Assembly: GCA_025544715.1 (NCBI GenBank)
Contig: GCA_025544715.1_4109.2
Reading direction: 5' to 3' (one strand)
Length of the DNA: 64,000 nt
From: Escherichia coli
GTDB taxonomy: Bacteria; Pseudomonadota; Gammaproteobacteria; Enterobacterales; Enterobacteriaceae
Part shown: one piece after another, positions 7,249 to 9,273 of the stretch
How positions within the stretch are numbered: the stretch's first letter is position 1
Layout of the letters: every line of letters starts with the position of its first letter
The notes under the pieces: model-generated
The model's database searches: none
What the model was told of the DNA's origin: nothing
The model's input: only the letters and a program-made list of their open reading frames with translations
Made by a program: the position numbers and the translations under genes

Positions 7249-7338
7249 TGGCAGTGAGTGTGGGATTCGAACCCACGATACGCTTTCGCATATGCTACCT
7301 TAGCAGGGTAGTGATTTCAACCACTCATCCAACTCACT
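7249..7338 (-). tRNA. tRNA-Ser (GCT), type II, CCA encoded
   Basis: Acceptor AGTGAGT/ACTCACT, 3-bp D-stem, anticodon stem CTACC/GGTAG with loop CTGCTAA, long variable arm, T-arm GTGGG-TTCGAAT-CCCAC. Confidence 0.7.
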
Positions 7339-7344
7339 AAATTA

Positions 7345-7373
7345 ATTATATCAGTACTGAACTATTTAGTCAA
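7345..7373 (-). promoter_or_regulatory. early-type sigma70 promoter (TTGACT-17-TATAAT)
   Basis: Minus-strand TTGACT (7373-7368), 17-nt spacer containing TCAGTACTGA, TATAAT (7350-7345); predicted start ~7338 coincides with the tRNA-Ser 5' end. Confidence 0.6.
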
Positions 7374-7741
7374 GTACTATTTTCGGAAAAAACCTTCTGC
7401 AACACTTTAAATATCACAGAATTTAATTCATGTGGGAACACATTTTCATATACTGTGCGTTTCTGAAATTCATCTTCTTCATCAGCACTTAGCTGGAAGG
7501 TAATGTATTGAGCATTTATACTACTTATTATATCACGTAAAGTGTTATTTGTCCTTTTTATTTCTTCAAATGATTCAAAAACAATTACATCGTCATTTAT
7601 AAGAAATGATTCACCATATTCCTTGAAAATGCGAATTCCAGGATTATCTTTACACCAGTTATTGGTATGGTCTGTCGTTAATTTTGAATTCAAAAATGAT
7701 TTAAGAAACTCTTCATACTTTGAAATGTCTTTAACACTCAT
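7370..7741 (-). CDS. EE-FQ-S C-terminal-module family protein (divergent)
   Basis: C-terminal region ADEEDEFQKRTVYENVF. Confidence 0.45.
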   Translation of the reverse strand: MSVKDISKYEEFLKSFLNSKLTTDHTNNWCKDNPGIRIFKEYGESFLINDDVIVFESFEEIKRTNNTLRDIISSINAQYITFQLSADEEDEFQKRTVYENVFPHELNSVIFKVLQKVFSENST

Positions 7742-8103
7742 ATCACCAACTTTAATTAAAAAAATGGATGGTGACGCGTTTAAACGCCGCTGTTAATTCA
7801 GCTTTATAACCACCCGTTTTAACTTACCTTTCGGCTACCTTGACGTGGGGCGTACAGGCTACTAAAAGCAACTTCTGTAAACATATTTCCACGCCTTACC
7901 ATTTTAAATAAAAGTCCATCCGGTTTTCCAGTTTGGTGAAGGACTGTCACCTCTAGTTTCAACCTGCTAGTCAAGTAATAATTGCCTATCGTCCAATTAT
8001 CAAACCCGTCTAGGTTAACATTCACCACTTCCTAGAGTACCAGAGATCTTGTTCTGGATAGCATCGACGTAACTTACACCATATACGTCTGATTGTGGAA
8101 TTC

Positions 8104-8132
8104 ATTATATCAGTACTGAACTATTTAGTCAA
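8104..8132 (-). promoter_or_regulatory. early-type sigma70 promoter (TTGACT-17-TATAAT)
   Basis: Same architecture and spacer as 7345-7373 (TTGACTaaatagttcagtactgaTATAAT). Confidence 0.6.
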
Positions 8133-8482
8133 GAATTAATTCGCATTTTTTTGAATTCACCAACCAAGTACTTATAGAACTCATAAGTGAACAATGGTTC
8201 TTGTACAGTACTCATTTGAAAATATTCTTCTTCTGTCTTTGGTACAGGGGAAGTATATGAAATATAGGGATTATAATCTTCTCCTACATAAGTAGAAACT
8301 TCAATATTAATTGAACTAAGATCTTTATGTAACAAGATGTTTAATATAACAGTTCGTTGGTCAGGAGTTTCTTCATTTTCCATCCACTGTAAACACAATC
8401 TCATCAGTTTATCCCAAAGATAAAATTGGAATTTGTAATCTTCAAGGTTGCGTTTTATTGCTTCTTCATATTCACTAAACAT
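8129..8482 (-). CDS. EE-FQ-S C-terminal-module family protein
   Basis: C-terminal region KTEEEYFQMSTVQEPLFTYEF. Confidence 0.5.
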   Translation of the reverse strand: MFSEYEEAIKRNLEDYKFQFYLWDKLMRLCLQWMENEETPDQRTVILNILLHKDLSSINIEVSTYVGEDYNPYISYTSPVPKTEEEYFQMSTVQEPLFTYEFYKYLVGEFKKMRINS

Positions 8483-8513
8483 ATCAAGTTGCCATATAAG
8501 TTAAGATACAAAC

Positions 8514-8541
8514 ATTATACAGTACTCAATTATTTAGTCAA
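8514..8541 (-). promoter_or_regulatory. early-type sigma70 promoter (TTGACT-16-TATAAT)
   Basis: Minus-strand TTGACT at 8541-8536 and TATAAT at 8519-8514. Confidence 0.55.
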
Positions 8542-8554
8542 GCTTTTTTTTTAA

Positions 8555-8719
8555 TTATCGGTGCACGATATGCATCAGTACTTCTTCGTCGAGTTCAGTA
8601 CTTAAGAATGATTTGTACATGCACTTAACACGTATAACATCCCACATTCTCTGATCCAACGGTAGATAATAAGGATTCCACTTTAGTTTCTGGAGTTTCA
8701 CCCACTCTTCATGTGTCAT
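8555..8719 (-). CDS. MTHEEW-family small protein (54 aa)
   Basis: Hand-translated MTHEEWVKLQKLKWNPYY...; start overlaps the stop of the upstream paralogue (ATGA); below the 60-aa track cutoff. Confidence 0.5.
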   Translation of the reverse strand: MTHEEWVKLQKLKWNPYYLPLDQRMWDVIRVKCMYKSFLSTELDEEVLMHIVHR

Positions 8720-8880
8720 ATTCGTACCAGTAGTTCAATTAAGTACATTTCATATGCTGGATCGTTGATAAGTTTATCATACAGATGTGGCTCTGAAATG
8801 AATTCCCAATGATACTCTAACCACTTACCAAAACCTGCATATCTAAAATTAATGTCATTCATCCATTCTTCATGTGTCAT
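8716..8880 (-). CDS. MTHEEW-family small protein (54 aa)
   Basis: Hand-translated MTHEEWMNDINFRYAGFGKW...; ATGA stop/start overlap on both sides. Confidence 0.55.
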   Translation of the reverse strand: MTHEEWMNDINFRYAGFGKWLEYHWEFISEPHLYDKLINDPAYEMYLIELLVRI

Positions 8881-9041
8881 ATTCGTACCATTATTTCAAA
8901 AAAGAACCACGGATACGCTTCATGGTTTATAAGTTTATCGTATTCTGCTGGGTCTGACATGATTTCCCAATGATATTTTCTCCAACTACCGAAACCACAA
9001 TATCTAAAATTAATGTCATTCATCCATTCTTCATGCGTCAT
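8877..9041 (-). CDS. MTHEEW-family small protein (54 aa)
   Basis: Translated codon by codon: MTHEEWMNDINFRYCGFGSWRKYHWEIMSDPAEYDKLINHEAYPWFFFEIMVRI; the 5' ~18 nt (CCATTCTTCATG[T/C]GTCAT on the plus strand) is near-identical across copies. Confidence 0.55.
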   Translation of the reverse strand: MTHEEWMNDINFRYCGFGSWRKYHWEIMSDPAEYDKLINHEAYPWFFFEIMVRI

Positions 9042-9063
9042 GGTTTTAACCTTTAATTAAAAT

Positions 9064-9140
9064 TGGCCGAGGTAGAGGGACTTGAACCCCCAACCTAGAG
9101 ATTAGAATTCTCTTGCACTATCCAATTGTGCTATACCCCG
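9064..9140 (-). tRNA. tRNA-Arg (TCT), CCA encoded
   Basis: Acceptor CGGGGTA/TACCTCG (one G-U), D-stem GCAC/GTGC, anticodon stem AGAGA/TCTCT with loop ATTCTAA, T-arm GGGGG-TTCAAGT-CCCTC. Confidence 0.65.
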
Positions 9141-9145
9141 TATTT

Positions 9146-9234
9146 GGCGGTGAAGGTGAGATTTGAACTCACGGAGGACTTTCACCCTCGCTAGTTTTCA
9201 AGACTAGTGCATTAAACCGCTCTGCCACTTCACC
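9146..9234 (-). tRNA. tRNA-Ser (TGA), type II, CCA encoded
   Basis: Acceptor GGTGAAG/CTTCACC, anticodon stem CTAGT/ACTAG with loop CTTGAAA, long variable arm, T-arm GTGAG-TTCAAAT-CTCAC. Confidence 0.7.
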
Positions 9235-9244
9235 AGTACTAATA

Positions 9245-9273
9245 ATTATATCACATCTTTATGTGATGTCCCA
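9245..9273 (-). promoter_or_regulatory. promoter-like element (TATAAT -10, weak -35)
   Basis: Minus-strand TATAAT at 9250-9245 puts the predicted start ~9238, next to the tRNA-Ser 5' end at 9234; -35 is a poor match (TGGGAC). Confidence 0.35.

Follow-up and report, generated by a model that had tools for sequence, protein, structure and literature searches.

Promoter-like sites abut tRNA genes in the phage DNA analysed here far more often than chance would place them. The DNA is a stretch of 64,000 nucleotides (the window) from an Asteriusvirus, a Rak2-like jumbo coliphage with a genome of 33% G+C. We hold it to be somewhat probable that its early region is a chain of compact transcription units, read by the host sigma70 RNA polymerase from near-consensus promoters, and that the promoters abut the stable RNA genes as a matter of compaction. 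The arrangement looks like extreme genome compaction and not like a new mechanism, and we regard compaction as the best reading and an adaptation for bypassing RNase P as less likely.

The following promoter-like sites carry the argument:

10023..10051, minus strand: GAGACA-17-TATAAT, with its -35 box overlapping the 3' end of the ORF at 10214..10038
9245..9272, minus strand: GGGACA-16-TATAAT with an extended -10 TG; a homologous arrangement is found in Salmonella phage 7t3
8514..8541, minus strand: cassette variant TTGACT-16-TATAAT, with an A-tract upstream
8104..8132, minus strand: cassette TTGACTaaatagTTCAGTACTGATATAAT, TTGACT-17-TATAAT with a TG extension; the -35 box contains the upstream ORF's stop codon
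7345..7373, minus strand: cassette TTGACTaaatagTTCAGTACTGATATAAT, TTGACT-17-TATAAT with a TG extension, 11/12 matches plus the TG; the -10 box ends at 7345

All five have a perfect TATAAT (6/6) and spacers of 16-17 bp, while the match of the -35 box to TTGACA is 5/6 for TTGACT (7373, 8132 and 8541) and 4/6 for GGGACA and GAGACA (9272 and 10051). The -35 box, the -10 box at the appropriate spacing and a placement beyond chance are those of housekeeping-type sigma70 (RpoD) promoters, and activity is predicted for the sites. One cassette accounts for three of them: an A-rich tract upstream is followed by TTGACT, by a spacer of 17 bp with TCAGTACTGA at its end, and by TATAAT; the TCAGTACTGA provides the extended -10 TG. 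The sequence-only reading had the same TTGACT-17-TATAAT cassette recurring at 8104 and 8514, which is right for 8104, whereas the copy at 8514 is a variant sequence with a 16-nt spacer. The site at 10023..10051 is identical in phage E9.1, and the 43-nt intergenic space around 9245..9272 is the promoter and nothing else.

Of the near-consensus promoters in the window, 31 lie on the minus strand and 2 on the plus strand. Such sigma70-type sites, gathered in a region of small ORFs on one strand, fit an early region (cf. PMC5259590), and early expression of the units would be expected from this layout. For the relatives CBB and PA5oct, dependence on TTGAC/TATAAT promoters of the host type is reported (PMC5259590, PMC7318152). 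Our literature searches returned no transcriptome or mapped transcription start for Asteriusvirus or RaK2-like phages.

The tRNA genes concerned are these:

9938..10010, minus strand: tRNA-Gly(TCC), found by ARAGORN, with 41.7 bits against RF00005 at 10010-9939
9145..9234, minus strand: tRNA-Ser(TGA), ARAGORN and Rfam; nucleotide 1 is G9234, 11 nt past the -10 box
9064..9140, minus strand: tRNA-Arg(TCT), ARAGORN and Rfam; 4 nt past tRNA-Ser(TGA) and without its own promoter
7249..7338, minus strand: tRNA-Ser(GCT), ARAGORN and Rfam; acceptor stem AGTGAGT/ACTCACT, then a gene-encoded GCCA
7166..7244, minus strand: tRNA-Met(CAT), ARAGORN and Rfam; 4 nt past tRNA-Ser(GCT) and without its own promoter
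7068..7152, minus strand: tRNA-Asn(GTT), ARAGORN and Rfam; 85 nt with a long variable arm, without its own promoter

The six score 62.7, 60.5, 58.9, 54.2, 47.5 and 41.7 bits against RF00005 (gathering threshold 29 bits), with model positions 1-71 covered, and what had been called a tRNA-like gene at 10010 is present and is a bona fide tRNA, at 41.7 against the required 29 bits. ARAGORN and the Rfam tRNA model both place the 5' ends of tRNA-Ser(GCT), tRNA-Ser(TGA) and tRNA-Gly(TCC) at 7338, 9234 and 10010, the same positions that had been assigned from the acceptor stems, and the minus-strand coordinates given earlier for boxes and tRNAs all hold. The first tRNA position is a purine in each of the three (A1, G1 and G1, respectively).

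As the sequence-only reading had proposed, the last T of the TATAAT lies 7 nt before position 7338 of tRNA-Ser(GCT) and 11 nt before position 9234 of tRNA-Ser(TGA), and the box at 10028-10023 is similarly placed, its last T being 13 nt upstream of nucleotide 1 of tRNA-Gly(TCC). This leaves 6, 10 and 12 nt, respectively, between the -10 box and the tRNA. Only 0.9% of minus-strand positions have an exact TATAAT with a gap of 6-12 nt, and for all three cluster-leading tRNAs (3/3) to be preceded in this way the probability is about 7.5e-7; 2.8% of background positions have a promoter that scores 10 or more within 20 nt. That the boxes stand beside tRNAs by chance in an AT-rich genome is an idea to which we give practically no credence. 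The 33% G+C would favour it, and a generic scan gave 99 weak promoter-like sites where 105 were expected, hence no overall excess; but the placement of the three exact boxes, the confinement of nearly all top-scoring sites to one strand and the occurrence of the same arrangement in other genera all speak against it.

Compaction shows at the neighbouring ORFs as well. At five promoters the -35 box contains a TGA stop codon, among them the cassette at 7345..7373, whose -35 box holds the stop of the ORF at 7741..7370. Promoters that lead ORFs keep their -10 box 30-48 nt away from the ATG, as does the variant site at 8514..8541 ahead of the ORF at 8482..8129 (31 nt). A stable RNA needs no leader for ribosome binding, and its promoter can therefore be pushed up against the RNA gene. 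The host sigma70 RNA polymerase would use the near-consensus promoters of these compact units, and since no terminator follows the tRNAs, the same transcripts would continue into the small ORFs downstream. Thus the unit that begins with tRNA-Gly(TCC) extends into small ORFs (from 9912..9697 on), and tRNA-Asn(GTT) is followed by an ORF with an HNH motif (7003..6464) with no terminator in between.

Where transcription would start can be predicted from the published determinants of start-site choice (PMC5730371): the start lies at the seventh base past the -10 box and is a purine (+1), preceded by a pyrimidine (-1) and followed by a G (+2). A7338 is that seventh base, a T precedes it and a G follows; every determinant points to it, and the predicted start is therefore nucleotide 1 of tRNA-Ser(GCT). 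Transcription from A7338 would yield a leaderless tRNA with a 5' triphosphate and a predicted 5' end independent of RNase P, as no RNase P cut would be called for. A start at nucleotide 1 is predicted for this tRNA only. Nucleotide 1 of tRNA-Ser(TGA) lies at position 11 from the -10 box, which gives a predicted leader of about 3-5 nt, and that of tRNA-Gly lies at position 13; in both cases the start would fall some 3-6 nt upstream and RNase P would trim a very short leader. The tRNAs for Arg, Met and Asn have no promoter of their own, so their 5' ends must be cut by RNase P, and they would be freed from the precursor in the usual way. The proposal of leaderless or near-leaderless transcripts is thus partly supported: at tRNA-Ser(GCT) the start-site determinants fall on A7338, and the other two tRNAs next to promoters would carry leaders of about 3-6 nt and need RNase P. 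As a general design, a start at the tRNA 5' end is not supported: Met, Asn and Arg are promoterless and the gap varies in relatives.

The cassette at 8104..8132 stands ahead of structured RNAs. Module A begins 1 nt after it and is followed by module B:

7905..8102, minus strand: module A, about 195 nt, a structured RNA not yet classified, with structure supported by covariation
7758..7900, minus strand: module B, about 143 nt, likewise a structured RNA not yet classified, with compensatory changes in 9/38 pairs

The cassette would drive both modules, with the transcript ending at a stem plus T-run. Module A is conserved at 97-99% in Asteriusvirus and at 81% in Klebsiella Alcyoneusvirus, and it recurs among the clustered tRNA genes of T4-like and T5-like Proteus phages and of Aeromonas phage 65. 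It sits in the tRNA-Gly/tRNA-Asp interval of Proteus PM2 and between two tRNA-Leu in Proteus phage 2, and the Aeromonas copy immediately precedes tRNA-Thr. An exact-motif scan with its core gave 4 loci in IMG/VR, 4 in metagenomes and 0 in GTDB genomes. Module B has a 5' domain closed by a stem of 7 bp and a 3' domain that is a three-way junction (GGGTGGT...ACCATCC), followed by the T-run at 7764-7758; it stands under its own cassette in JNE01 and the Klebsiella phages. The single-sequence fold of 8097-7775, which cuts off the module B terminator, is only weakly better than shuffles (z = -1.8), so that the case for structure rests on covariation, which supports the prediction that both modules are structured RNAs. 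Searched against Rfam at the gathering threshold and at E up to 10, the region 8160-7700 gave chance-level matches only, and 50 kb from the tRNA region of CBB contained no homologue of the modules. The ncRNAs that RNA-seq defined in PA5oct were considered as homologues too and rejected. The annotated 69-aa GTG ORF at 8028..7819 was likewise discarded as a gene, as it spans the boundary between the modules and the conserved blocks do not follow it. In current annotations the modules appear as "hypothetical protein" or carry no annotation; Rak2-like genomes, of about 350 kb, are very poorly annotated.

In the E. coli and Klebsiella relatives, every cassette copy but one is followed by a stable RNA gene, whether a tRNA, module A or module B. 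Klebsiella phages Muenster and RaK2 have 5 cassettes in 1.5 kb, each ahead of a stable RNA gene, and no further copies in 32 kb. The distance from box to RNA is 0, 1, 6, 9-12 and, once, 70 nt across the family. In JNE01 a cassette stands ahead of module B, in CBB, GAP32 and 7t3 promoters lie 8-21 nt ahead of several tRNAs, and in EJP2 the abutting promoter is absent altogether. The tRNA-Ser(GCT) gene is 97.8% identical between the E. coli and Klebsiella phage genera, and RaK2 was the only match when its 5' half was scanned against IMG/VR.

These comparisons bear on the view that the spacing was selected to bypass RNase P, as in Nanoarchaeum equitans, for a faster or host-enzyme-independent supply of tRNA. 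The exact spacing at tRNA-Ser(GCT), with the four start-site determinants aligned, is what this view would predict, and gaps of 6 nt recur between TATAAT and tRNA-Gly in RaK2 and Muenster and between cassette and module A in the metagenomic locus L027. The 6-nt discriminator TAATTT ahead of tRNA-Ser(GCT) is also the same in 9 Asteriusvirus genomes that differ in their -35 boxes and spacers, but this invariance is weak evidence because the nine genomes are closely related (91-99% identity). In most units, however, the gap is 9-12 nt, the Klebsiella phages have 70 nt between the cassette and this same tRNA-Ser(GCT), and in 121Q, G17 and JNE01 a different tRNA-Ser lies 10 nt past an identical cassette. 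The promoterless tRNAs for Met, Asn and Arg would depend on RNase P in any case, and the E. coli host has this enzyme. We therefore regard selected bypass as very unlikely. Since the distance from box to RNA is not fixed, the exact coincidence with nucleotide 1 may be the accident of one fusion. On the compaction reading the Ser(GCT)-type spacing is an exception, and most units of the family would have leaders of 3-6 nt, no more unusual than those of E. coli proK and proL.

It may also be asked whether the tRNAs derive mainly from upstream read-through with conventional processing, the cassette being a recombination module or a protein-binding site. No terminators were seen between transcription units within the window, and read-through from upstream promoters would consequently also yield ordinary leader-bearing precursors. 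Moreover, sequence has been deleted or replaced in JNE01, 121Q and EJP2 with junctions that fall at direct repeats of the cassette, and the spacer contains a palindrome, AGTACT, that is over-represented genome-wide. Against this stand the 11/12 match, the extended -10 TG and the upstream A-tract, the strong strand bias of the promoters, the Klebsiella units, each with its own cassette and terminator-like module, and the fact that all cassette copies but one precede RNA genes. Taken together, we find this account quite unlikely.

A plain sigma70 promoter leaves the conserved palindromic spacer unexplained. The spacer, AGTTCAGTACTGA, has the 10-bp palindrome TCAGTACTGA beside the -10 box and might be bound as an operator by a dimeric phage protein that turns the synthesis of stable RNAs on or off in the course of infection. 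It is kept between the E. coli and Klebsiella phage cassettes where the flanks can no longer be aligned, and the spacer of the promoter at 9272 likewise has an inverted repeat (ATCACAT-aaag-ATGTGAT). On the other hand, AATAAT replaces AGTACT in 2/5 Klebsiella copies, and AGTACT occurs 116 times in the window, mostly within ORFs. A promoter-specific palindrome was rejected as AGTACT is enriched genome-wide, an enrichment in phages for which literature searches returned no report. The conservation of the spacer could reflect shared recent ancestry, since the genera may recently have exchanged the tRNA region. We consider an operator unlikely; it would be an addition to the compaction explanation, with which it is compatible. 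A fuller version, in which the cassette is dedicated to stable RNAs, gives a leaderless, 5'-triphosphorylated tRNA-Ser(GCT) without RNase P, drives modules A and B and has its spacer as a phage operator, is conceivable and we put it forward tentatively, with more doubt than belief. It would make the Asteriusvirus tRNA-Ser(GCT) a parallel in a bacterial virus to the N. equitans solution, with modules A and B as RNAs that different phage families have in or near their tRNA clusters.

Compared with known systems, the predicted start of tRNA-Ser(GCT) is the same as in N. equitans, where transcription starts with a purine at nucleotide 1 of the tRNA and leaves a 5' triphosphate with no endonuclease step (PMC10100707, PMC3491384). 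That archaeon has uniform spacing and no RNase P, whereas in the phage 1/6 tRNAs fits and spacing varies among relatives; the gaps in the window are 6, 10 and 12 nt and three tRNAs lack a promoter. The phage promoter is also, unlike that of N. equitans, of the bacterial sigma70 type in a host that bears RNase P. The prediction for tRNA-Ser(TGA) and tRNA-Gly resembles E. coli proK and proL, where a sigma70 promoter near the tRNA gives leaders of 5-7 nt that RNase P removes (PMC5291269). The phage units differ from these in extending into ORFs or further tRNAs and in having AT-rich discriminators. Host stable-RNA promoters typically have GC-rich discriminators under stringent control.

The modules recall species 1 and 2 of T4 (rnaC and rnaD), small stable RNAs of unknown function amid phage tRNA genes. 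Module A is non-coding and occupies the same kind of slot, among the tRNA genes of T4-like and T5-like Proteus phages, but sequence homology to the T4 RNAs was rejected (best blastn E 0.08; nhmmer profiles blank in the T4 region). The modules are also larger (about 195 and 143 nt against 139 and 119 nt) and, in the jumbo phages, stand under their own promoters, unlike rnaC and rnaD. As regards the promoters, the consulted parts of the accounts of CBB, GAP32 and PA5oct describe RpoD-like TTGAC(A)/TATAAT early promoters with an upstream AT-rich element, used by host RNA polymerase (PMC5259590, PMC7318152), and concentrated, as here, in a one-strand region of short ORFs. Those parts mention neither a repeated cassette dedicated to stable RNAs nor an abutment on tRNA 5' ends.

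Literature searches gave no report of leaderless tRNAs in phages and no earlier case of a tRNA 5' end set by RNA polymerase in an E. coli system. If its start is confirmed, tRNA-Ser(GCT) would be a natural tRNA of the E. coli system whose 5' end is defined by RNA polymerase instead of RNase P, and it would offer a simple model for the effects of a 5' triphosphate on tRNA use and for promoter placement that replaces processing. The cassette is a marker of stable RNA genes in Rak2-like genomes, and it led to two conserved structured RNAs. For the early region of these phages, the stop codons within -35 boxes show the degree to which it is compacted.

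The region from 6900 to 10300 is about 91–93% identical to Asteriusvirus jumbo coliphages, E9.1, JP4, 121Q, PBECO4 and phAPEC6 among them, and parts of it also match Klebsiella Alcyoneusvirus phages, e.g. RaK2, K64-1 and Muenster. The window has a G+C content of 33%, and minus-strand ORFs cover about 90% of it. ARAGORN found six tRNAs in the window, all on the minus strand, and the promoter scan reported five sites:

10051..10023, minus: promoter-like site GAGACA-17-TATAAT
10010-9938, minus: tRNA-Gly(TCC)
9272..9245, minus: promoter-like site GGGACA-16-TATAAT
9234-9145, minus: tRNA-Ser(TGA)
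9140-9064, minus: tRNA-Arg(TCT)
8541..8514, minus: promoter-like site TTGACT-16-TATAAT
8132..8104, minus: promoter-like site TTGACT-17-TATAAT
7373..7345, minus: promoter-like site TTGACT-17-TATAAT
7338-7249, minus: tRNA-Ser(GCT)
7244-7166, minus: tRNA-Met(CAT)
7152-7068, minus: tRNA-Asn(GTT)

The Rfam tRNA model matched full-length and gave the same 5' ends as ARAGORN, and the gene at 10010, described as "tRNA-like" in a sequence-only reading, is tRNA-Gly (41.7 bits with that model, against a gathering score of 29). Read from the sequence, nucleotide 1 of tRNA-Ser(GCT), tRNA-Ser(TGA) and tRNA-Gly lies 7, 11 and 13 nt downstream of the last T of the -10 box, and the coordinates of these boxes in the earlier reading were correct. 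An exact TATAAT ends 6–12 nt upstream of 0.9% of minus-strand positions and of 3/3 cluster-leading tRNAs (P ~7.5e-7). Of background positions, 2.8% have a combined promoter score of 10 or more within 20 nt; the three cluster-leading tRNAs reach 10.5–12.5 and the three internal ones 4.5–5.5. The minus strand carries 31 promoters with at most one mismatch from consensus, the plus strand 2. The abutment of promoters on tRNAs is real and highly non-random.

The internal tRNA-Arg, tRNA-Met and tRNA-Asn lie 4–13 nt behind the preceding tRNA without a promoter of their own, and therefore need RNase P anyway. Since the terminator scan found no terminator-like site after the window's tRNA clusters, and ORFs begin 20–60 nt past them, the tRNAs are the predicted 5' ends of polycistronic transcripts.

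The tRNA-Asn(GTT) at 7152-7068 (minus) is 85 nt long with a U1-A72 pair and a long variable arm, the class II shape as in bacterial tRNA-Tyr; the 85-nt form is also kept in Klebsiella phage Muenster (locus L002, 17097-17180), and in E9.1 the position is taken by a normal 74-nt tRNA-Asn. The tRNA-Met(CAT) of Muenster (L002 16713-16961) carries a group I intron in its anticodon loop (RF00028, 104 bits), unlike the uninterrupted gene of the window. Directly behind the tRNA-Ser/Met/Asn cluster lies an ORF (7003..6464, minus) with the HNH-type motif CANCHREIH, whose syntenic Muenster gene is annotated as an HNH endonuclease, and which may mediate exchange of tRNA-region modules. Five small paralogous ORFs of 54–60 aa all start with MTHEEW, three of them in tandem immediately behind tRNA-Arg:

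10214..10038, minus: MTHEEW paralogue
9695..9513, minus: MTHEEW paralogue
9041..8877, minus: MTHEEW paralogue
8880..8716, minus: MTHEEW paralogue
8719..8555, minus: MTHEEW paralogue

E. coli RNA polymerase most often starts 7 bp past the -10 element, favouring a purine as the first base, with a pyrimidine immediately before it and G immediately after (PMC5730371). The tRNA-Ser(GCT) promoter reads TATAAT-taattt-AGTG, which puts A7338 at position 7, with a T before it and a G after it. As all determinants pick A7338, nucleotide 1 of the tRNA, a leaderless tRNA-Ser(GCT) transcript is a straightforward prediction. The promoters of tRNA-Ser(TGA) and tRNA-Gly read TATAAT-tattagtact-G and TATAAT-agttattacggt-G, respectively, and by the same determinants the start would fall about 3–6 nt upstream of the tRNA. 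The earlier proposal that transcription starts at mature tRNA 5' ends is thus borne out in substance for tRNA-Ser(GCT), at the level of prediction, and that of near-leaderless transcripts in spirit for tRNA-Ser(TGA) and tRNA-Gly, with their very short predicted leaders; as a general design it fails, since the gaps vary and internal tRNAs lack a promoter. Promoter activity, exact starts and 5' chemistry are all predicted here, and no start-site data for the Rak2-like phage group were found in the literature. Sigma70 early promoters, short-leader tRNA genes and, in an archaeon, leaderless tRNAs are known already.

The three TTGACT promoters of the window are copies of one element, TTGACTaaatagTTCAGTACTGATATAAT, here called the cassette; its TTGACT-17-TATAAT form had been said to recur at 8104 and 8514, which is true of 8104, whereas the copy at 8514 has a 16-nt spacer whose sequence differs slightly. 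The spacer contains TCAGTACTGA, a perfect 10-bp palindrome and the source of the extended -10 TG. A promoter-specific role for the palindrome was rejected, as AGTACT is spread evenly over the window (median spacing 462 bp), in all three codon phases and with symmetric flanks. No other hexamer in the window is as strongly over-represented (about 7-fold, with 116 sites where 16 would be expected), and AGTACT extends as (T)CAGTACTG(A), with 26 occurrences of CAGTACTG against 0.7 expected and 11 of TCAGTACTGA against 0.08. The excess persists after synonymous-codon shuffling (85 sites versus 23.5 +/- 4.4), and is common to E. coli, Klebsiella and Pectobacterium members (loci L001, L002, L003 and L014 besides the window). 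This pattern suggests a signal at the level of double-stranded DNA, e.g. a protein-binding or modification site.

Muenster and RaK2 have five copies of a close variant, aaaaaaGTGTTGAACaaaaaGTTCAGTACTGATATAAT, clustered within 1.5 kb, with no further copy in 32 kb. All five precede a stable RNA gene, including module B, one of two structured RNAs described below (gaps run from the -10 box to the RNA):

cassette to module B: gap 10 nt
cassette to tRNA-Arg: gap 11 nt
cassette to tRNA-Ser(GCT): gap 70 nt
cassette to tRNA-Ser(TGA): gap 12 nt
cassette to tRNA-Met: gap 9 nt

The cassette stands directly against module B in JNE01 (gap 0) and before module A in the metagenomic locus L027 (gap 6). The arrangement TATAAT/TAAAAT-TAATTT-tRNA-Ser(GCT) is common to nine Asteriusvirus genomes that differ in -35 box and spacer, and EJP2 has tRNA-Ser(GCT) without any adjacent promoter. 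In 121Q, G17 and JNE01 (L007, L033, L020) the identical cassette is followed by AAACAAATAC and, in place of tRNA-Ser(GCT), another tRNA-Ser (anticodon ACT per ARAGORN). Compared with window 7373-7249 the junction coincides precisely with the end of the -10 box, and tRNA modules therefore appear to have been swapped at the cassette. The more distant CBB, GAP32 and 7t3 have TGnTATAAT promoters 8–21 nt before some tRNAs, most tRNAs of CBB being without one. Tight abutment of promoters on stable RNA genes is the rule in the Rak2-like group; a start coinciding with nucleotide 1, as predicted, is the exception, confined to one gene in one genus.

Compaction in the window is extreme. At five intergenic promoters (-35 boxes at 48103, 22282, 15845, 8132 and 7373, minus) the -35 hexamer TTGAC(A/T) contains the TGA stop of the preceding ORF, and the spaces before the three cluster-leading tRNAs hold the promoter and nothing more. 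ORF-leading promoters stand a uniform 30–48 nt from the ATG; a leader with room for a ribosome-binding site is required in a protein gene but not in a stable RNA. Most simply, deletion would have removed every dispensable base, leaving promoters abutting stable RNA genes. tRNAs with a 5'-triphosphate function in translation, T7 transcripts being an example. A leader of a few bases, or none at all, would be tolerated because such tRNAs work and RNase P copes with short leaders, as with the 5–7 nt leaders of E. coli proK and proL (PMC5291269). An adaptive bypass of RNase P, such as is known from N. equitans (PMC10100707, PMC3491384), is not supported: the promoter-tRNA spacing varies, the same tRNA-Ser(GCT) has a 70-nt gap in Klebsiella phages, and RNase P is still required for the internal tRNAs. 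The likely cause of the abutment is that early transcription units were compacted around a reusable stable-RNA promoter cassette. Host stable-RNA promoters typically have GC-rich discriminators, whereas those of the phage are AT-rich, which suggests strong output escaping stringent control.

Behind the cassette at 8132-8104 lie 345 nt (8102-7758) whose G+C content is 40–42%, compared with about 30% on either side, and which are 97–99% identical among about 35 Asteriusvirus genomes (flanks about 92%) and 81% identical in Klebsiella phages. The stretch is no ordinary ORF and comprises two modules:

8102 to ~7905, minus: module A, ~195 nt
7900-7758, minus: module B, ~143 nt
7815-7758, minus: three-way-junction element, the 3' domain of module B
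L015 701-897, L016 701-893, L017 ~645-787, L018 701-831, L002 15000-15381: module A/B loci elsewhere
L002 14931-14999, 15325-15381, 16585-16645: three-way-junction element in Muenster

The three-way-junction element (GGRTRRTTATAAA...ACCATCC, then a T-rich run) is conserved. In Klebsiella phages it recurs 3' of stable RNA genes, finishing several Muenster/RaK2 units, and it probably represents a terminator module that they share. One Muenster copy holds a promoter-like TTGACA-17-TATTAT 8 nt before module A. In JNE01 and Klebsiella phages module B is preceded by a cassette of its own, and the 5' domain of module B is present in the N4-like coliphage XT18. Module A also occurs in unrelated phages, with 85–91% identity inside the tRNA clusters of two Proteus phages, between tRNA-Gly and tRNA-Asp in the T4-like PM2 and flanked by two tRNA-Leu genes in a T5-like phage; diverged copies lie beside tRNAs in Aeromonas phage 65 (tRNA cluster) and one IMG/VR contig. 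Its core motif had no occurrence in 185,579 GTDB genomes.

The modules are mostly unannotated or labelled as a 69-aa hypothetical protein; this GTG ORF, annotated in some records, was rejected because it straddles the A/B boundary. Neither module matched Rfam, even at E up to 10. By position they resemble the stable RNAs encoded in T4's tRNA cluster, but comparison with T4 rnaC/rnaD, the PA5oct ncRNAs and the CBB tRNA region gave no match. Consensus folding revealed compensatory changes in both, with double changes at 9/38 pairs of module B and one pair of a module A hairpin seen as G-C, A-U, C-G and U-A; this covariation supports modules A and B as structured RNAs, and it is to these two unclassified RNAs that the stable-RNA cassette has led.
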